From a virus (taxonomy: Duplodnaviria; Heunggongvirae; Uroviricota; Caudoviricetes), in the IMG/VR virus record IMGVR_UViG_3300010259_000016, positions 1 to 11,855 of that record: DNA of 11,855 bases; one strand, given 5' to 3'. The first letter of the stretch is position 1; the number at the start of each line of letters is the position of its first letter. Below the pieces are notes generated by a model. It was not told where the DNA came from and ran no database searches. It was given only the letters and a program-made list of their open reading frames with translations. Shown here one piece after another: positions 1 to 7,055 of this stretch. The position numbers and the translations under genes are program-made.

Positions 1-118
1 ACTTAGTGCCACTGATTTTGTCCTCAAAAATCCGCTCACATCCCGCGCAGTTCAGTGCATTACGTTGCAAATCGGTGTTCTGGTCATTTGTTGACACGCG
101 TACATAGCCAATAAGCAT
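1..118 (-). CDS. Serine DNA invertase (Gin/Pin/Cin/Hin family), N-terminal 39 codons only; gene continues beyond the left edge
   Basis: Reverse complement of 1..118 translates from the ATG at 118..116 as MLIGYVRVSTNDQNTDLQRNALNCAGCERIFEDKISGTK. This is the conserved N-terminus of small serine invertases, including the YVRVSTNDQ motif with the catalytic serine at position 9. Too short and edge-truncated to appear in the ORF track. Confidence 0.9.
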   Translation of the reverse strand, partial: MLIGYVRVSTNDQNTDLQRNALNCAGCERIFEDKISGTK

Positions 119-173
119 GATCAATCCCCTGAATAAAAACCGGGGATGATGCCAGTTAGTCGTAATCGCTGCA

Positions 174-199
174 TTTTCTTAAACGTTGGTTTGGGAGAA
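174..199. other. Invertase crossover site 1 (gix/hix-like, 26 bp)
   Basis: TTTTCTTAAACG-TT-GGTTTGGGAGAA: two 12-bp half-sites around a central TT dinucleotide, fitting the remembered gix/hix half-site pattern TTnTCnnAAACC. The inner half-site (188..199) is the exact reverse complement of 2107..2118. Lies 56 bp upstream of the invertase start. Confidence 0.8.
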
Positions 200-646
200 G
201 GTTCAGCATTACCCGTTGGCGTGCCTGTTCCGTGGCCTTCCGCCACTCCGCCAACAGGCTGGCTGAAATGCAACGGTGCGGCTTTTTCTGCTGAAGAATA
301 CCCGGAACTGGCAAAGGCTTACCCGACAAATAAATTGCCTGATTTACGTGGTGAGTTCATTCGTGGCTGGGATGACGGAAGAGGAATAGATACTAACCGT
401 AGCTTGCTTTCGTCACAGGGAGATGCCATTCGAAATATAATTGGTGCATTAGTGGATGTCAGGTTTAATACCTACCCTTCTGATTCTGGCGTTTTTACAA
501 CCAGCGTCATCGGAGATGCTTCATCTGATTCAATTAAAGGTGGTTATGCAAAGCGAGTAACATTCGATGCTTCCAGAGTTGTTCCAACTGCAAACGAAAA
601 CCGACCTCGTAACATTGCCTTTAATTATATCGTGAGGGCTGCCTGA
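187..646 (+). CDS. Alternative tail-fibre variable C-terminal segment, silent in this orientation; has no start of its own and would be fused to the constant fibre region after inversion
   Basis: ORF 146..646 contains GLGEGSALPVGVPVPWPSATPPTGWLKCNGAAFSAEEYPELAKAYP, a tail-fibre C-terminal receptor-binding motif. The frame is continuous with the constant part of the fibre gene across the crossover site. The first 14 residues of the track ORF (MMPVSRNRCIFLNV) are outside the segment and probably not translated. Confidence 0.8.
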
Positions 647-1248
647 TGAATAAAGCCGTATTAAATAACGAACTCATTGCCATAAAAGCGGGAGACATTA
701 CCATTTATAATTATGATGGTGAAACGCGGGAATATATTTCCACATCAACTGAATATCTTGCGGTTGGCGTCGGTATCCCGGCATGTTCTTGTTTAGATGC
801 ACCAGTTACACATAAAGCTGGTTATGCAATCTGCCGTTCTGCAGATTTTAACTCATGGGAATATGTGCCAGACCATCGCGGTGAAATCATCTATAGCACT
901 GAAACAGGAGAATCGAAAGAAATCACAGCTCCGGGTGATTACCCTGAAAATACAACCACTATCGCCCCGTTAACGCCATATGATAAATGGGATGGTGAGA
1001 AATGGGTGACGGATACTGAGGCACAGCATAGTGCCGCAGTAGACGCAGCAGAAGCACAGCGCCAGTCACTGATTGATGCAGCAATGGCTTCCATTAGTCT
1101 GATTCAGCTGAAATTACAGGCCGGACGGAAACTGACGCAGGCAGAAACAACCCGACTTAACGCCGTGCTGGATTACATTGACGCGGTGACGGCAACAGAT
1201 ACCAGCACAGCGCCGGACGTCATCTGGCCTGAACTGCCGGAGGCGTAG
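646..1248 (+). CDS. Tail-fibre assembly protein (Tfa chaperone) paired with the alternative fibre end
   Basis: 200 aa. Start overlaps the stop of the preceding fibre segment (TGATG). C-terminus DYIDAVTATDTSTAPDVIWPELPEA is a Tfa-type tail. Sits directly downstream of a fibre C-terminal module. Confidence 0.85.
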   Translation: MNKAVLNNELIAIKAGDITIYNYDGETREYISTSTEYLAVGVGIPACSCLDAPVTHKAGYAICRSADFNSWEYVPDHRGEIIYSTETGESKEITAPGDYPENTTTIAPLTPYDKWDGEKWVTDTEAQHSAAVDAAEAQRQSLIDAAMASISLIQLKLQAGRKLTQAETTRLNAVLDYIDAVTATDTSTAPDVIWPELPEA

Positions 1249-1663
1249 GCCATTCAATATCTGGAGCACTGGAGGGATCAACCAGTTCCAGTGCGTCCAG
1301 ATAATCCAGCCATAAATTATATTGCTCCAGCTCGTTACCTTTCAGACGACCAATAGCAGCTTTGCCAGGCCACTGATGGGTATTGATGTAAGTATTGGCT
1401 TCTGAAACCAAAGATATTTTTTTCATTTCAGCCATCAACACCTCATCCTCTTTTGAAGGCGGTGGGGAATTAATCCATATTGGCCGTCCTGAACTGTCAG
1501 CGCCAATTTCTTTCCCTTCTGGATGCAGCCCAAGAAATTGCTCATATGTTTCTCGGGTAATTTCAATAACATCATCTGGAAGCGTTCCCGCATCCTCATA
1601 TTCTGGAAACAATTCTTGTAGATAAAAACTTTTACTTCCGGGTGAAAAGAATACTGAGTTCAT
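1220..1663 (-). CDS. Tail-fibre assembly protein (Tfa chaperone) paired with the currently expressed fibre end
   Basis: 147 aa. ATG lies 2 nt after the fibre stop codon. C-terminus DYLDALELVDPSSAPDIEWPTPPAVQAR is a Tfa-type tail. Its 3' end overlaps the opposite-strand tfa by 29 bp. Confidence 0.85.
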   Translation of the reverse strand: MNSVFFSPGSKSFYLQELFPEYEDAGTLPDDVIEITRETYEQFLGLHPEGKEIGADSSGRPIWINSPPPSKEDEVLMAEMKKISLVSEANTYINTHQWPGKAAIGRLKGNELEQYNLWLDYLDALELVDPSSAPDIEWPTPPAVQAR

Positions 1664-1665
1664 TA

Positions 1666-3168
1666 TTACCGTCCAATGATTAACGCTGAGACGCTGGTAT
1701 CTGAAGGAAAGGCTGCATTCAGTGGTTTGTCGACTTTGAATACAATCGTATTATTCCCCCGGACAGCGGCAAAAGAACAAACCGCCGTCGCGTATGAACC
1801 TGTAATATTACTGGATACACCACCATAGGCTGTTGTTGATACCAGAGGGATAACGCCCAGCACCTTATTAGGAAATACAAAGGGCAATGTGGCTGTGGCA
1901 ATATAAGACTTATTAGAACCTGTAATGGCATAAGCATTATCAGTCATTCCATTCATCGCCACTGGACCGCTTATACTTACAGTAACCATCTGAGTGATTA
2001 GCCCGTCAGGTTGACGAATCACAAAATTTCCATTGCCACCAGTAACCGTCCAGAAAGACATATCAGGGATTTGGTTTTCCCCGTTGCCCACATTCCGTTT
2101 TGCCGCTTCTCCCAAACCAAGGTATGCGAGAAGACCAGCTACATCCTTTCCACTCAAATTGGTAAGCGTATTGTCCAGCGGTTGTTTACCTGCCAGCGCA
2201 TTAAGCATTGTCGTGGCAAAGTTCGGATCATTCCCCAGTGCCGCCGCCAGTTCGTTCAGTGTATCCAGTGCCGCAGGTGCAGAACCCACCATTGCTGCAA
2301 TCGCTGATTTCACAAAAGCTGTAGTGGCAATCTGTGTATTGTTGACCGACTGTGCCGCAGTAGGTGCTGTTGGCGTTCCGGTGAGTGCCGGACTCGACAG
2401 CGGTGCTTTTAGTGCCAGCGTATTGTTAATGGTGGTACTGAATTTCGGGTCATTGTTAATGGCTGCGGCAATTTCTTTCAGTGTGTCCAGCGTGGCTGGC
2501 GCACCGTTAATCAGAGCAGTAATAGCGGCCTGAACAAACTCAGTGGTCGCAATCCGCGTGGTGTTATTTCCTGCTGCAGGCGTCGGCGCTTTTGGTTCTC
2601 CGGTAAATGTCGGATTATGTTTCTGCGCATACTGGGTATGAGGATCTTGTGCGGCAATGTGGTTTCTCATCTGGTCATCCACATACAGCTTTAATTCCAG
2701 GACTTCATCATCCACATATTTACGGGTTGCCAGCACTACAGCAGGGTCGATTTTCAGGGTGATTTTGTCCGTACTGCTGGTAATCAGCACCATGCGCACG
2801 GTCTGGGTGCGCCCGCTGCCTTCAGCCAGTTGCGGCTTATAGCTTTCCGGGCAGTTGCCCACGGCAATCAATGCCCCGGACTCATCAAACAGGCCCACTT
2901 CACGTATCCACCAACCGCCCTCGTTTTCAGGGATCACCTGTTCAGCAATAATCTGGCTGCTGTTCTGCGGGTCGATATAAAGCATATTCAGCGCAGCCCG
3001 GCGTTTCTCATTTACCAGTGCCGTCTGCTTTGCGTCCGGCGTTGGCAATACTCCGCCGCCATCGCCCACCGCCATATGGGTAATTTTTAGCGGCACACCG
3101 AGCGCGGCGGCGCTGGCAAGTTTCGCCGCGCCAATATCCGTCAGCAGGGTATAAAATTTTGTGCTCAT
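1666..3168 (-). CDS. H: Tail fibre protein (P2 gpH-like): constant N-terminal part 2120..3168, currently fused to the variable C-terminal part 1666..2119
   Basis: 500 aa. N-terminus MSTKFYTLLTDIGAAKLASAAALGVPLKITHMAVGDGGG...ESYKPQLAEGSGRTQTVRMV matches the P2 gpH N-terminal anchor as I remember it. Internal tandem repeats are present. The crossover site falls in codons 350..354 (LGLGE). Confidence 0.9.
   Translation of the reverse strand: MSTKFYTLLTDIGAAKLASAAALGVPLKITHMAVGDGGGVLPTPDAKQTALVNEKRRAALNMLYIDPQNSSQIIAEQVIPENEGGWWIREVGLFDESGALIAVGNCPESYKPQLAEGSGRTQTVRMVLITSSTDKITLKIDPAVVLATRKYVDDEVLELKLYVDDQMRNHIAAQDPHTQYAQKHNPTFTGEPKAPTPAAGNNTTRIATTEFVQAAITALINGAPATLDTLKEIAAAINNDPKFSTTINNTLALKAPLSSPALTGTPTAPTAAQSVNNTQIATTAFVKSAIAAMVGSAPAALDTLNELAAALGNDPNFATTMLNALAGKQPLDNTLTNLSGKDVAGLLAYLGLGEAAKRNVGNGENQIPDMSFWTVTGGNGNFVIRQPDGLITQMVTVSISGPVAMNGMTDNAYAITGSNKSYIATATLPFVFPNKVLGVIPLVSTTAYGGVSSNITGSYATAVCSFAAVRGNNTIVFKVDKPLNAAFPSDTSVSALIIGR
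2107..2132. other. Invertase crossover site 2 (gix/hix-like, 26 bp), inside the tail-fibre coding sequence
   Basis: TTCTCCCAAACC-AA-GGTATGCGAGAA. The inner half-site and central dinucleotide are the exact reverse complement of site 1 (188..199 plus TT at 186..187). Confidence 0.8.
2179..2583 (-). repeat. Internal tandem duplication within the tail-fibre gene (two copies of about 60-70 codons)
   Basis: Protein repeats TTRIATTEFVQAAITALINGAPATLDTLKEIAAAINNDPKFSTTINNTLALKAP and NTQIATTAFVKSAIAAMVGSAPAALDTLNELAAALGNDPNFATTMLNALAGKQP. The corresponding DNA is visibly similar (for example gtggcaatctgtgtattgttgac versus ggtcgcaatccgcgtggtgttatt). Confidence 0.7.
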
Positions 3169-3770
3169 GGATTCACTCTCATTGTGTCAATAACATGGAC
3201 CGCCCCGCCTTCATGCGCGGTGCCACCGGAAATAATCGTTTCGTTGATATACGGATAGATCGTGATTTCTTCGCCAAGATAGCTGGCGGCTCCCACCCAA
3301 TGCGGGCCGCTGGTCTGCAGATTGATGGACATGCCGATCATGTGGCGGCTACATGGTTTGGCATCGCTTATCAGTCGCTCAAGTTCCAGATAGGTATCTT
3401 CAGTGATGCCCTGGTCCTGCACGCCGATATCCAGGCGAAACGTGCCCGGTGCCTCTCCGGTCTGCCACCACTCAATAATGCGGATCAGAAAGCCGAACGG
3501 CTCCACCACCCGCCGCACGGCACTGGTGGTCCCTTTATGCTGATGAATATAAAAAGCATCCTTCACCACCTGGCGCTTGACGCTTTCTGTCCAGCCCTCG
3601 TCCCAGCGATCCACAGAGAACGCCCAGGCGAGATAAGGCAGGAAACTGACCGGACAGGTTGCCGGATTCCACAAGTCACGAAGCGGCACCTGCAGATCAG
3701 AAATCCCGCTGCAGGTTTGCGCCAGTCGGCGCTCCAGTGGTGTTGAACCCGGTGGCAGCAGACTATTCAT
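3165..3770 (-). CDS. I: Baseplate/tail protein I (P2 gpI-like)
   Basis: 201 aa. Position between the baseplate J gene and the tail fibre gene, overlapping the fibre start by 4 nt (ATGA). Sequence MNSLLPPGSTPLERRLAQT...FLPYLAWAFSVDRWDEGW is typical of P2 gpI-family proteins. Confidence 0.8.
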   Translation of the reverse strand: MNSLLPPGSTPLERRLAQTCSGISDLQVPLRDLWNPATCPVSFLPYLAWAFSVDRWDEGWTESVKRQVVKDAFYIHQHKGTTSAVRRVVEPFGFLIRIIEWWQTGEAPGTFRLDIGVQDQGITEDTYLELERLISDAKPCSRHMIGMSINLQTSGPHWVGAASYLGEEITIYPYINETIISGGTAHEGGAVHVIDTMRVNP

Positions 3771-4671
3771 CCGTTCCTCCGTTGGTTACGCTCCACTGCG
3801 TACATGATGCCGCCTGTGTTTTGTTCAGGACCACATCCGCCAGAGGAGAAGCCAGCTCCACACGCTGCACACCCTCAACATGCAGGGAGGCAAAGATGGC
3901 GCTACGGCGAATATCCCGACCAAGACGCGTCTGACTGGCGATGTACTTCTGCAGGCTGGCTTTTGCCGCTGCCATTACCGGCTCTGCTTCCGGTCCAGGA
4001 TAGAGAAAAATGGTGGCTTCCACGCGATACGGGATGATTTCTGCGCTGCGAACCGTAAGACGGTCAGCCACCGGGCGGACGTTCTCACTGTTCAGAGCTT
4101 TTTCCACCACGTCCAGCAGGTCTTTTTCTGCGGTTCCATCGCCTTCGCGGCTAAGGACAGTCAGCACCACCTCTGCAGGTGCCGGGCTGGTTGCACTGAC
4201 ATCCGCCACCCGACCGTCGGCGCTTCGGGCATGAAATTCATAAGCTGCAGTTGGCCCCGCAACTGAAAGCCCTTCAAAGGCTGCAGGCACACGCAGGCGT
4301 AACGCTTCATCGCTTTCCATCACAGCTGCAACGGGCGGCACAGCGTCATTATCAGCAGGCGTCACCGTCAGGCGTTTCACGTTGTAGTTGGCAGCGAGCT
4401 GGTCAAGATCGCTGCCCATCGCGTAAGCCACCATCACAGCCTGCGCGGCTTCGTTAATGCGCTGGCGCAGAAGCAACTCACGGTAAGCGTTCTCCTGCAG
4501 CAATTTGGTGACGGGTTCAGATTCCAGTTCCAGCGTACGGATCACTGCTTCCTGCTCATCTTTCGGATGAAGCGCCACAAATTCGGCCTTGCGTTCGGCA
4601 AGCAGCGTCTCAAAGTCCGGCACATCCACAATCTGCGGCGCAGGCAACTGCGAAAGGTCAATCACTGCCAT
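3763..4671 (-). CDS. J: Baseplate wedge protein J (P2 gpJ-like)
   Basis: Track ORF 3763..4710. The likely start is the internal Met at 4671 (MAVIDLSQLPAPQIVDVPDFETLLAERKA...), preceded by an AGGAG Shine-Dalgarno; this matches the remembered P2 gpJ N-terminus. C-terminus ...RVELASPLADVVLNKTQAASCTQWSVTNGGTDE. Confidence 0.9.
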   Translation of the reverse strand: MAVIDLSQLPAPQIVDVPDFETLLAERKAEFVALHPKDEQEAVIRTLELESEPVTKLLQENAYRELLLRQRINEAAQAVMVAYAMGSDLDQLAANYNVKRLTVTPADNDAVPPVAAVMESDEALRLRVPAAFEGLSVAGPTAAYEFHARSADGRVADVSATSPAPAEVVLTVLSREGDGTAEKDLLDVVEKALNSENVRPVADRLTVRSAEIIPYRVEATIFLYPGPEAEPVMAAAKASLQKYIASQTRLGRDIRRSAIFASLHVEGVQRVELASPLADVVLNKTQAASCTQWSVTNGGTDE

Positions 4672-5017
4672 TCTCTGCTCCTGTTGATACGGAAAGGGAA
4701 ACGGGCACACCGTTATTACGCCGCCCGCTCAGCGCCACCACCATTGAACCGTCAAAATTGCTGTTGATGGTGATGGAATCCAGCGTCATCCGTGGCTCCC
4801 AGCGACTCAGCGCCACATACACTGCCGACATGACCTGCAGGCGTAATGCCGGATTTTGTGGCTGGTCTATTAGCGACGACAGCAGGGAACCATATTCACG
4901 ACGAGCAATGCGGCTACCCTGCGGCGTCAGCAGAATGTCCCGCACCGACTGGCGCAGATGGTCAATATCAGTAATGACTTTGCCGCTGGTATTGTTCATC
5001 CCGCTATAAAGCGTCAT
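4658..5017 (-). CDS. W: Baseplate assembly protein W (gpW / gp25-like)
   Basis: 119 aa. Lies between V and J with overlapping start and stop codons. Size and sequence (...ILLTPQGSRIARREYGSLLSSLID...) fit the GPW/gp25 family. Confidence 0.85.
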   Translation of the reverse strand: MTLYSGMNNTSGKVITDIDHLRQSVRDILLTPQGSRIARREYGSLLSSLIDQPQNPALRLQVMSAVYVALSRWEPRMTLDSITINSNFDGSMVVALSGRRNNGVPVSLSVSTGAENGSD

Positions 5018-6552: not shown

Positions 6553-6784
6553 TAATCATGTCCACTTTGTCTGCACAGACCGCCCAGGCGGCCTCCGTTT
6601 CATCCAGCAACGCGTTCAGGTCACCGTTAGTGCGCGGCGCTGCCTGCCCCAGCCGACACGGCGTCACTCGCGGACAACCACTGACGGTAAGCTGCACCTC
6701 CGGTGAGTGTGGGGCGTTCCCGCAGCCGGATAATGTCAGCAGGCAAAGGAGTATCAGCCCAGCGGCGTAAATCCTCGTTCTCAC
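6494..6784 (-). CDS. lysC: Outer-membrane spanin lipoprotein (LysC / Rz1-like), nested in another frame within lysB and running into R
   Basis: 96 aa. MRTRIYAAGLILLCLLTLSGCGN... has a signal peptide followed by an LSGC lipobox. Proline-rich. Embedded out of frame in the i-spanin gene as in P2 lysB/lysC. Confidence 0.7.
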   Translation of the reverse strand: MRTRIYAAGLILLCLLTLSGCGNAPHSPEVQLTVSGCPRVTPCRLGQAAPRTNGDLNALLDETEAAWAVCADKVDMIIACQERNSEQTTIPSPRPQ

Positions 6785-7055
6785 GTTTCAGTTCCTCAAT
6801 CCGGTGTTGTCGTTGTCTCAGTAGTGCGCTGGTCTGTTCTGCGTCGGCATAGAGTAGCGCCTGCTCCCGGTTGTTGGTTTCTGTCAGAATGGACAGGCTG
6901 ATAAGCTGGCTGTTGCTCTTTGCCAGTGCCTGGCTTTTGCTCCGAAGCTCGTCTGCCTGCGTGCTGATGGTCTGGCTGGCATCAGCCAGCCGCCACGTCT
7001 GCCAGCCCAGCGCCGCCAGTAATAACGCCAGCACAACCAGCAGCAACCGGTTCAT
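6627..7055 (-). CDS. lysB: Inner-membrane spanin (LysB / Rz-like)
   Basis: 142 aa. N-terminal transmembrane helix MNRLLLVVLALLLAALGW followed by a charged, coiled-coil-like periplasmic region (ELRSKSQALAKSNSQL...RQRQHRIEELKRENEDLRRW). Confidence 0.75.
   Translation of the reverse strand: MNRLLLVVLALLLAALGWQTWRLADASQTISTQADELRSKSQALAKSNSQLISLSILTETNNREQALLYADAEQTSALLRQRQHRIEELKRENEDLRRWADTPLPADIIRLRERPTLTGGAAYRQWLSASDAVSAGAGSAAH

Follow-up and report, generated by a model that had tools for sequence, protein, structure and literature searches.

An invertible tail-fibre segment of the Pin/pix type in a probable P2-like prophage

We analysed a stretch of DNA of 11,855 nucleotides from the virus record IMGVR_UViG_3300010259_000016, which is called the window in the following, and found that the region at its left end is very probably a site-specific inversion switch of the Pin/pix type that a P2-like prophage carries in its tail-fibre operon. 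The evidence comprises two crossover sites, the reading frames that run through them, the gene content around them and the inversion that is observed in close relatives. The presence of an invertible tail-fibre segment of the Pin/pix type here is well confirmed, and the segment is of a kind already known: invertible tail fibres of this design are on record from the 1980s onwards, in Mu, P1 and e14.

Judged from its genes, the host element appears to be a P2-like (Peduoviridae) prophage of Escherichia or a close relative, in which the switch has the fibre genes on one side and the tail-sheath gene on the other. Beyond the switch, the window consists of the late region of P2, in the order O N M L .. 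K .. R S V W J I. Domains matched in Pfam are those of GPO, the P2 capsid, the small terminase, GPL, lysozyme, GpR, tail S, V, W, J and I, together with that of the tail-collar fibre. In relatives the invertase is followed by the tail-sheath gene. The features of the switch are collected in Table 1, where Sc denotes the constant part of the fibre, Sv the variable C-terminus that is expressed in the present orientation and Sv' the silent alternative.

Table 1. Features of the inversion region (positions in the window)
Feature	Position	Strand	Basis or content
DNA invertase gene, 5' end, codons 1-39, cut by the window edge	1..118	-	MLIGYVRVS(9)TNDQNTDLQRNALNCAGCERIFEDKISGTK; Pfam Resolvase N-terminal domain, E 2.3e-9
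Spacer from invertase start codon to site 1, 55 nt	119..173	-	spacer comparison
Crossover site 1, invertase-proximal, pixR-like	174-199	+	TTTTCTTAAACG TT GGTTTGGGAGAA
Parts of site 1	core 186-187; inner half 188-199	+	outer half TTTTCTTAAACG, non-coding; core TT; inner half GGTTTGGGAGAA, G-L-G-E of the silent cassette
Silent alternative C-terminus (Sv'), 152 codons and stop	188..646	+	starts GLGEGSALPVGVPVPW; Pfam Collar, E 1e-15; phrog_523 (tail collar fibre), E 1e-74
Tail-fibre assembly chaperone (200 aa), cognate to Sv'	646..1248	+	Pfam Caudo_TAP, E 1.7e-32; phrog_105, E 2.5e-99
Tail-fibre assembly chaperone (147 aa), cognate to Sv	1220..1663	-	Pfam Caudo_TAP, E 3.6e-27; phrog_188, E 1.1e-53
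Expressed variable C-terminus (Sv), residues 351-500	1666..2118	-	GLGEAAKRNVG... to stop; translation; phrog_12714 and tail-fibre families
Crossover site 2, within the fibre gene, pixL-like	2107-2132	-	minus strand TTCTCGCATACC TT GGTTTGGGAGAA
Parts of site 2 (minus strand)	core 2120-2119	-	outer half TTCTCGCATACC, (L)-L-A-Y-(L); core TT; inner half GGTTTGGGAGAA, G-L-G-E
Constant fibre part (Sc), residues 1-350	2119..3168	-	Pfam Phage_tail_fib, E 1.1e-64; P2-type tail-collar fibre N-terminal domain
Baseplate genes resembling P2 gpI and gpJ, immediately upstream of the fibre	3165..4710	-	Pfam Tail_P2_I, Baseplate_J

Results

Crossover sites

The two sites make up the top-ranked inverted repeat in positions 1-3300 (27 nt, 81% complementary, with 1905 nt between the arms), the perfect portion of which is 15 bp long (186-200 against 2106-2120). 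The 14-mer TTCTCCCAAACCAA is present in two copies in the window, compared with 0.10 expected by chance, and two or more copies arose in 0 of 200 shuffles. When the whole window was scanned with a degenerate 26-mer of the Din type, allowing up to 3 mismatches, sites 1 and 2 were the only matches, with 0.04 expected. Both sites (26 bp, imperfectly palindromic and inverted) match the dix consensus with 0-1 mismatches, and no third crossover site of the kind of a shufflon or Min-like system was found in the whole window with 2-3 mismatches tolerated.

The earlier note on this DNA had claimed that the two sites have in common a perfect 12-bp inner half-site and a matching TT/AA core, and sequence comparison verified both, with the same core dinucleotide at both sites. 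The sites also align, as that note had proposed, to the published sites of the Din family (PMC3241671, Table 3): the inner half together with the core, TTCTCCCAAACC AA, is identical to that of both pixL and pixR of e14, the outer half of site 1 differs from that of pixR at 1 of the 12 positions and the outer half of site 2 differs from that of pixL at 3 of the 12. With respect to the consensus, the outer half of site 2 has GGTAT instead of GGTTT and that of site 1 has AAACG instead of AAACC, and both deviations are also found in P1 cixR and e14 pixR. It is noted that site 2 carries GGTAT, as P1 cixR does, because the codon there is that of Tyr (TAC) and not that of Asn (AAC). Moreover, the inverted repeat that was published as the inversion point of e14, TTGGTTTGGGAGAAGG, is exactly positions 186-201 of the window (PMC12529663).

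In-frame fusion with two alternative tips

In the present orientation the minus-strand fibre (3168..1666, 500 aa) reads ...A348-Y349-L350-G351-L352-G353-E354-AAKRNVG, with the fibre-side site spanning codons 347-354. Residue L350 is C(2121)T(2120)T(2119), and therefore its final two bases are the core dinucleotide. Because the inner half-sites are the same 12 bp in the same phase, Sc is joined in frame via L-G-L-G-E to either tip. That the fusion would be in frame in both orientations, as had been claimed from a first reading of the DNA, was borne out by inverting 187..2119 in silico and translating the product, which gives a single open frame of 502 aa, ...YLGLGEGSALPVGVPVPW...IVRAA, running without interruption to the stop codon that is numbered 644-646 in the original orientation; inverting 186..2120 or 188..2118 gives the same product. 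The accompanying claim, that the recombination site is at the same time a coding linker shared by both variants, holds true family-wide: the fibre-side site is read in one codon phase at gix of Mu, at cix of P1, at pix of e14 and at 39 additional loci of other Enterobacterales, and the peptide is (N/Y)-L-G-L-x-E or a close variant. Of the 43 site pairs of related loci, 42 have compatible cores, and in these loci the identity is 10.3/12 for the inner halves versus 7.8/12 for the outer halves; one relative has three or more crossover sites.

The silent part Sv' holds a Phage Tail Collar domain and is of the same cassette type as StfE, the silent cassette of e14, whose start is identical. Each variable part is trailed by its own Caudo_TAP chaperone gene. 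The ATG of the 200-aa chaperone overlaps the stop codon of Sv' (TGATG), and the two chaperone genes are convergent, with their 3' ends overlapping by 29 nt, as is the case for tfaP and tfaE of e14. At the other end of the segment, Sc is transcribed together with the upstream baseplate genes. A direct-repeat search found no direct repeats at the DNA level in the constant fibre part, where a repeat is visible at the protein level only.

Invertase gene and its surroundings

The gene of the invertase, a serine DNA invertase, adjoins the segment and reads away from it. Within the 39 visible codons it is identical to PinE at 38 of 39 residues, to Gin at 34 and to Cin at 32, and the catalytic Ser9 is present within VRVST. 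The spacer to site 1 is nearly the same in length as in e14 and Mu (54 nt each) and falls within the 53-66 nt of most loci; it carries a conserved TGGCATCAT motif, the complement of which is the source of a spurious ATG at position 146. Positions 29-100 of the window, corresponding to nucleotides 19-90 of the invertase gene, are identical at 56 of 72 nt to the annotated recombinational enhancer of P1 cin, in a stretch that is protein-coding; the identity to the P1 enhancer is 55/72 for gin and 57/72 for pinE. A scan for the Fis motif (G-N13-C with an AT-rich centre), which is a simple motif, gave a placement that is not consistent among cin, gin, pinE and the window. In a promoter and terminator scan of positions 1-3400, promoter-like sites were no more numerous than in shuffles, and no convincing invertase promoter was found.

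Inversion in close relatives

Inversion at these sites has occurred in the closest relatives. In E. coli 2020N21-246 and 2020N21-246-1 (loci L003 and L086), which are two assemblies of one E. coli lineage with Sc 99.9% identical to that of the window, the flanks are identical and a 3080-nt block, bounded by both sites, is the exact reverse complement. A second pair, NZ_CP149553 and NZ_CP149565 (loci L001 and L002), is inverted at the same sites, with a block that is not a clean reverse complement and has 16 unexplained substitutions within one cassette. The junction obtained by inverting the window in silico is present in 372 complete E. coli genomes, in one of them at 100% identity, versus 24 for the native junction, and at least 13 draft contigs end within the invertase-proximal site. 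In addition, inversion of the tail-fibre locus of P2-like prophages has been measured in EPEC cultures (PMC4272514).

These data bear on the possibility that the switch is a frozen relic, in which the sites and the cassettes are intact and no inversion takes place, the invertase beyond the window being defective or silent and the fibre being fixed with the AAKRNVG tip. The visible invertase ends after 39 codons, which is compatible with such a relic, and the lower count of the native orientation among complete genomes would fit occasional fixation. We nevertheless consider it quite unlikely, since both sites are perfect where it matters, both cassettes and both chaperone genes are open, and the closest relatives (L001 and L003) encode intact, full-length 188-aa invertases and have inverted. 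Pin-type enzymes, moreover, act in trans on pix sites (PMC12529663).

The open reading frame 146-646

The open reading frame 146-646 starts 41 nt outside the segment, and its 14th codon, GTT (185-187), straddles the crossover. The earlier note had taken its 5' end to be an artefact, and this is supported by the comparison of the 43 loci, among which no start of its own is conserved. As a conserved independent start the ATG at 146 was rejected: it is present in e14 and Mu, but the leader frame closes within 1-6 codons in many of the 43 loci, and because the out-of-segment frame is so often closed the silent cassette is left with no conserved start. GGGG directly abuts the ATG at 146, a spacing that is poor for a Shine-Dalgarno sequence, and the scan showed no promoter-like site directed towards this ATG. 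As a caveat, a 2025 paper claims that the equivalent start in e14 gives a functional chimeric protein, StfE2 (PMC12529663).

From that claim a different purpose of the inversion could be derived, namely that it mainly benefits the host and not the phage: the flip would put a cassette behind the short out-of-segment start at 146 and yield a free receptor-binding fragment that blocks the adsorption of other phages, as claimed for StfE2. The chimeric e14 frame that starts outside the segment was reported to give resistance to T2 (PMC12529663), and an in-frame ATG about 28 nt outside the segment is common to the window, e14 and Mu. If this proposal were true for the window, it would sit badly with the leader frame that is not conserved and with the weak start signals described above. 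The window also contains a complete P2 late region, which is consistent with a working phage that needs its fibre. A benefit to the host by this route appears very unlikely here.

Finally, two further readings of the repeat were weighed: that ordinary homologous recombination drives the inversion, or that the repeat is nothing more than a coding motif common to both cassettes and plays no part in recombination. In their favour, the same peptide is encoded in both cassettes, and coding conservation alone could hold 12 bp identical. Their probability is nevertheless practically negligible. A perfect repeat of just 15 bp is too short for RecA to exchange efficiently, and site 1 matches the 26-bp invertase consensus in its non-coding outer half as well (1 nt from pixR). 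The invertase gene is 55 nt away, and the natural inversion in relatives ends exactly at the sites.

Discussion

Proposed mechanism of the switch

For the inversion switch of the Pin/pix type we infer the catalytic steps, the Fis dependence and the host-range outcome from a mechanism modelled on the established Hin/Gin system. Dimers of the invertase would bind both 26-bp sites, the synapsis of which would be aided by Fis bound to the putative enhancer that the invertase gene carries in its 5' part, and each of the four strands would then be cleaved at the identical TT/AA cores, the cuts being staggered by 2 bp. An identical 2-bp core at both sites is required for religation after the 180-degree rotation. 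With the segment in its current orientation the reading frame gives the AAKRNVG... tip (500 aa), and with the segment flipped it gives the GSALPVG..., Tail Collar tip (502 aa). Whichever tip is in use, the chaperone gene cognate to it comes next in the operon. The result would be a mixed phage population with two receptor specificities.

Comparison with known systems

The P segment of e14 (PinE, pixL/pixR), a cryptic lambdoid prophage of E. coli K-12, has a layout in common with the window, Sc / Sv-tfa >< tfa'-Sv' / pin. It differs in that e14 is a decayed lambdoid element whereas the window has a P2-like myovirus late operon, in that the constant part of StfP has about 93 codons rather than 350 aa with a P2 tail-collar N-terminal domain, and in the segment length of 1.8 kb versus 1.93 kb in the window. 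The residue before the motif is N (AAC) in e14 and Y (TAC) in the window, which gives the GGTAT in the fibre-side outer half of the latter.

The G segment of Mu (Gin/gix) has the gene order of the window, baseplate - fibre Sc / Sv U >< U' Sv' / invertase, and its site is in the same codon phase, reading N-L-G-L-Q-E. ORF callers give the silent cassette of Mu the same kind of spurious start outside the segment (Mup52). By contrast, both half-sites of Mu are identical (34-bp inverted repeats), the core is TC/GA, and the segment is 3 kb long, with larger cassettes, in a transposable myovirus. The C segment of P1 (Cin/cix) has the TT/AA core of the window and a fibre-side site reading I-Q-Y-L-G-L-R-E, in which the same Tyr codon gives GGTAT in the outer half, and its annotated enhancer falls in the first 90 nt of the invertase gene; however, cin borders the segment, which is 4.2 kb long, with its 3' end rather than its 5' end. 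The Min system of p15B has six sites, compared with two in the window. The Hin/hix flagellar switch of Salmonella resembles the window in that its recombinase is of the same subfamily and its 26-bp sites are built alike, with a 2-bp core, but Hin flips a promoter, sits inside its own segment and makes no alternative coding fusions.

The same type of element at the same locus, likened here by description, is found in the fibre loci of P2-like prophages of E. coli such as those of EPEC E2348/69, where two-repeat and three-repeat versions are present (Goldberg et al. 2014, PMC4272514). In the RefSeq annotation the same gene set is present in hundreds of E. coli genomes, and the cassette combination of the window, AAKRNVG with GSALPVG, is one among many mosaics.

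Wider readings and meaning

A wider reading would be that the L-G-L-G-E/pix junction is a common in-frame docking point at which cassettes are flipped or exchanged across prophages, and that the silent cassette is perhaps translated from the out-of-segment ATG as an StfE2-like block to superinfection. A common docking point can be considered because P2-like, lambdoid (e14) and other prophage fibres share 14 bp of this junction, read in one codon phase. If it is true, an invertase that belongs to one prophage could flip cassettes in a second prophage of the same cell, or swap cassettes between the two. Homology to other phages does break exactly at the sites, with the matches to Klebsiella phage beginning at 2107 and those to some E. 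coli sequences at 180-181, and PinQ has been published to act in trans on e14 (PMC12529663). Neither point is a novelty in principle, and the decoy idea is without support from conservation. We regard this wider reading as rather unlikely.

The finding matters mainly for annotation and as a textbook case, and the current understanding of serine invertases and of tail-fibre switching is unchanged by it. The frame 146-646 is a promoterless alternative fibre C-terminus, copies of which in relatives are labelled "tail fiber protein" or "hypothetical protein" in RefSeq, and it is legitimate for assemblies of such prophages to show opposite orientations or to be interrupted at these sites. For host-range work, it would be expected that a lysogen with this prophage should release two particle types, the tips of which belong to the two commonest cassette families in this analysis, AAKRNVG and GSALPVG/Tail Collar.

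Crossover sites and reading frame

The window holds two invertase-type sites with identical cores, which give in-frame fusions in both orientations; the start of a Pin-like invertase adjoins site 1 at 55 nt, a distance typical of the family, a cognate chaperone gene lies behind each fibre tip, and inversion bounded by these sites is seen in close relatives. The features are listed in the table.

Features of the fibre switch in the window
Feature	Position	Strand	Description
DNA invertase start	118..2	-	Encodes MLIGYVRVSTNDQNTDLQRNALNCAGCERIFEDKISGTK; Resolvase N-terminal domain, E 2.3e-9
Site 1	174-199		TTTTCTTAAACG TT GGTTTGGGAGAA; complement TTCTCCCAAACC AA CGTTTAAGAAAA
Fibre C-terminus, promoterless	188-646	+	Tail Collar domain
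Chaperone gene	646-1248	+	200 aa; Caudo_TAP
Chaperone gene	1220-1663	-	147 aa; Caudo_TAP; convergent with the 646-1248 gene
Present fibre C-terminus		-	Fourth unit, between the 1220-1663 chaperone gene and the constant fibre part; end of the fibre gene
Site 2	2107-2132		Minus strand TTCTCGCATACC TT GGTTTGGGAGAA; plus strand TTCTCCCAAACC AA GGTATGCGAGAA
Fibre gene	3168..1666	-	500 aa; residues 1-150, P2 tail-collar fibre N-terminal domain, Pfam E 1.1e-64

Among the inverted repeats of the region, the two sites rank first, their arms lying 1905 nt apart, and both carry TT GGTTTGGGAGAA, so that the inner half-sites and core dinucleotides match as the earlier note had claimed. Inner half and core together form a 14-mer that is present at exactly two places in 11.9 kb (0.10 expected), and a degenerate pattern for 26-bp invertase sites matches only at these sites even when as many as 3 mismatches are allowed (0.04 expected). 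Across site 2 the fibre reads A348-Y349-L350-G351-L352-G353-E354-AAKRNVG, the core dinucleotide being bases 2-3 of the Leu350 codon. The predicted in-frame fusion was also borne out: inversion of 187..2119 in silico yields a single open frame of 502 aa (...YLGLGEGSALPVGVPVPW...) ending at the original stop, 644-646. The limits 186..2120 or 188..2118 give the same inverted sequence, because both cores are identical.

When the half-sites are aligned with the published sites pixL (TTCTCCCAAACC AA GGTTTTCGAGAG) and pixR (TTCTCCCAAACC AA CGTTTATGAAAA) of the e14 switch (Table 3, PMC3241671), the inner half and core of both window sites are identical to pix, while the outer half is 1 nt from pixR on the invertase side and 3 nt from pixL on the fibre side. 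Comparison sites were taken from the annotated records of Mu, P1 (annotated cix crossover points) and e14 in MG1655, and a consensus scan found all of them again. The fibre genes of Mu, P1, e14 and the window read through the site in identical phase, site position 1 being codon position 2, with the peptides F-I-Q-N-L-G-L-Q-E, V-I-Q-Y-L-G-L-R-E, A-L-E-N-L-G-L-G-E and L-L-A-Y-L-G-L-G-E, respectively; the site thus doubles as fibre coding sequence, as had been proposed. GGTAT in the outer half of the window site and P1 cixR is there because of the Tyr codon TAC. Moreover, the silent cassette of e14, StfE, begins GLGEGSALPVGVPVPWPS, the same as that of the window, and the inverted repeat TTGGTTTGGGAGAAGG given as the e14 inversion point in a 2025 study (PMC12529663) is exactly window 186-201.

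The start of ORF 146-646

In ORF 146-646, codons 1-13 and the initial base of codon 14 lie outside the segment. It is of low probability that this out-of-segment start yields a functional protein after inversion, as was claimed in one published dissent for the e14 equivalent, StfE2, said there to block phage T2 (PMC12529663): across 43 loci, the frame outside the segment often stays open for only 1-6 codons, and the Shine-Dalgarno spacing at 146 is poor. In addition, the ATG at 146 arises where a conserved motif of the spacer, TGGCATCAT, is read on the opposite strand; e14 and Mu have this motif too, and ORF callers make the same call in them (stfE and Mup52, respectively). Therefore a 5'-end artefact, the reading of the earlier note, is the better one, and all of that note's factual statements are correct, since sites, reading frame and inversion are as stated.

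Within the 55 nt that separate site 1 from the invertase start, the invertase strand has a terminator-like hairpin followed by a T-run (138-157, minus), which overlaps TGGCATCAT. One possible role is to curb transcription running on from the segment into the invertase gene, but neither e14 nor Mu shows an obviously conserved stem.

Gene content

The window is a P2-like prophage late region by its Pfam matches (scaffold GPO, P2 capsid protein, small terminase, GPL, lysozyme, GpR, tail proteins S, V, W, J and I), on the minus strand for the most part, and the fibre gene comes after these. The invertase gene is incomplete, continuing past the left edge; its start is identical at 38/39 positions to PinE of e14, 34/39 to Gin and 32/39 to Cin, with catalytic Ser9 present. 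Four units sit between it and the fibre.

The convergent chaperone genes overlap at their 3' ends by 29 nt (1220-1248), exactly as tfaP/tfaE do in e14, and likewise in L001, a locus of the pair NZ_CP149553 and NZ_CP149565. An imperfect 18-nt inverted repeat on either side (1167-1184 / 1293-1310) probably reflects a C-terminal chaperone domain common to both genes. The constant fibre part has two consecutive protein-level repeats of ~68 aa (2133-2590, residues ~192-335; BLOSUM62 local score 194; pattern ...IATTEFVQAAITAL..APATLDTLKEIAAA..NDP.F.TT...), which were not found as DNA direct repeats. Lying between the lysozyme gene and gpR, a 142-aa ORF (6627-7055, minus) of the lysis region has no Pfam match; its position makes it probable that this is a spanin gene of the P2 lysB type or a lysis accessory gene.

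Inversion in relatives

The cleanest evidence of flipping is a pair of one lineage, E. coli 2020N21-246 and 2020N21-246-1, with flanks identical over 1206 + 2695 nt and a 3080-nt block that is the exact reverse complement, with zero mismatches, between TTTTCATAAACG TT GGTTTGGGAGAA and TTCTCCCAAACC AA GGTATGCGAGAA. Window 2106-3400 and the constant fibre part of this pair share 99.9% identity. In a second pair, NZ_CP149553 and NZ_CP149565 (5,198,112 bp each), the 1905 nt lying between those sites are inverted. At a coverage threshold of 80% or more, the in-silico inverted fibre junction (600 bp) is found in 372 complete E. coli genomes, one at 100% identity, and the native junction in 24. Published work at read level found e14, and two tail-fibre loci of P2-like prophages in EPEC, to be phase-variable (PMC4272514).

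In the 2020N21-246 pair, IS1203 (IS3 family) lies 1 nt inside the inner half-site of one crossover site (L003 1207-1240 and L086, the loci of the pair: GGTTTGGGAGAA-G-TGAACCGCCCC...), destroying one cassette, so that the fibre is a pseudogene in one orientation and intact in the other. The segment inverted cleanly with IS1203 included, so at most ~13 bp inside the core are needed on that side. In the second pair, pig E. coli chromosomes of equal length, L001 1962-2847 and L002 2839-3724 differ by 16 unexplained substitutions, all within the AAKRNVG cassette and its chaperone gene; either polishing errors caused by mixed reads or gene conversion with a second prophage as donor could account for them.

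Among draft genomes of other Enterobacterales species, at least 13 contigs end inside the invertase-proximal 26-bp site, 64-131 nt upstream of the invertase start (loci with the end in the first bases: L007, L015, L018, L021, L027, L030, L033, L036, L038, L039, L061, L069, L070). Such ends are a signature of assembly broken by mixed orientations in reads or by repeated cassettes.

Spread in Enterobacterales

With the full-length invertase of a close relative as query and one genome per species scanned, 79 loci were found in many Enterobacterales. Among 43 site pairs analysed, including Mu, e14, the window and one close relative, 42 have compatible cores and the remaining one contains an N; mean identity within pairs is 10.3/12 for inner and 7.8/12 for outer halves. 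On the fibre side, the site nearly always sits within a long ORF at an unchanged phase (the locus with the N is the exception) and encodes (N/Y)-L-G-L-(G/T/S/Q)-(E/D/N/S), internal substitutions being rare.

The cassette families GLGEAAKR.VG and GLGEGSALPVG recur after constant parts of ~93, 115-126, 204 and 351 codons. Nucleotide homology to other phages stops exactly at the sites, Klebsiella phage matches starting from 2107 and some E. coli ones from 180-181; therefore the site is also a mosaic boundary for cassette exchange, as Sandmeier and Haggård-Ljungquist reportedly described in the early 1990s. No complete E. coli genome in the collection matches the whole 3.3 kb of window 1-3300 above ~94-96%, and one lineage matches the constant fibre part and silent cassette at 97-100%; this makes the window a mosaic of cassettes without a whole counterpart in the collection. 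Locus L031 (Escherichia sp. MOD1-EC7003) has three AAACCAACGTT site cores (51, 538, 1052; ~500 bp apart) upstream of one invertase, which suggests a multi-site, Min-like arrangement in a relative; the window has only two sites.

Mechanism and conclusion

Based on the established Hin/Gin model (e.g. PMC3575834), invertase dimers would bind each site, synapsis would occur on supercoiled DNA upon activation by Fis and an enhancer, double-strand cleavage would leave a 2-bp stagger and phosphoserine links, and the subunits would rotate by 180 degrees before religation. Invertase nt 19-90 (window 100-29) agrees with the annotated P1 enhancer at 56/72 positions but, being coding as well, counts as a candidate for the enhancer.

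The earlier note's observation is confirmed and its interpretation supported. Hundreds of E. coli genomes carry annotations of this gene set, and the switch, with sites essentially identical to pix, is an ordinary, well-worked-out feature that belongs to a system in the literature since the 1980s. By analogy with Mu and P1, its outcome would be two receptor specificities.
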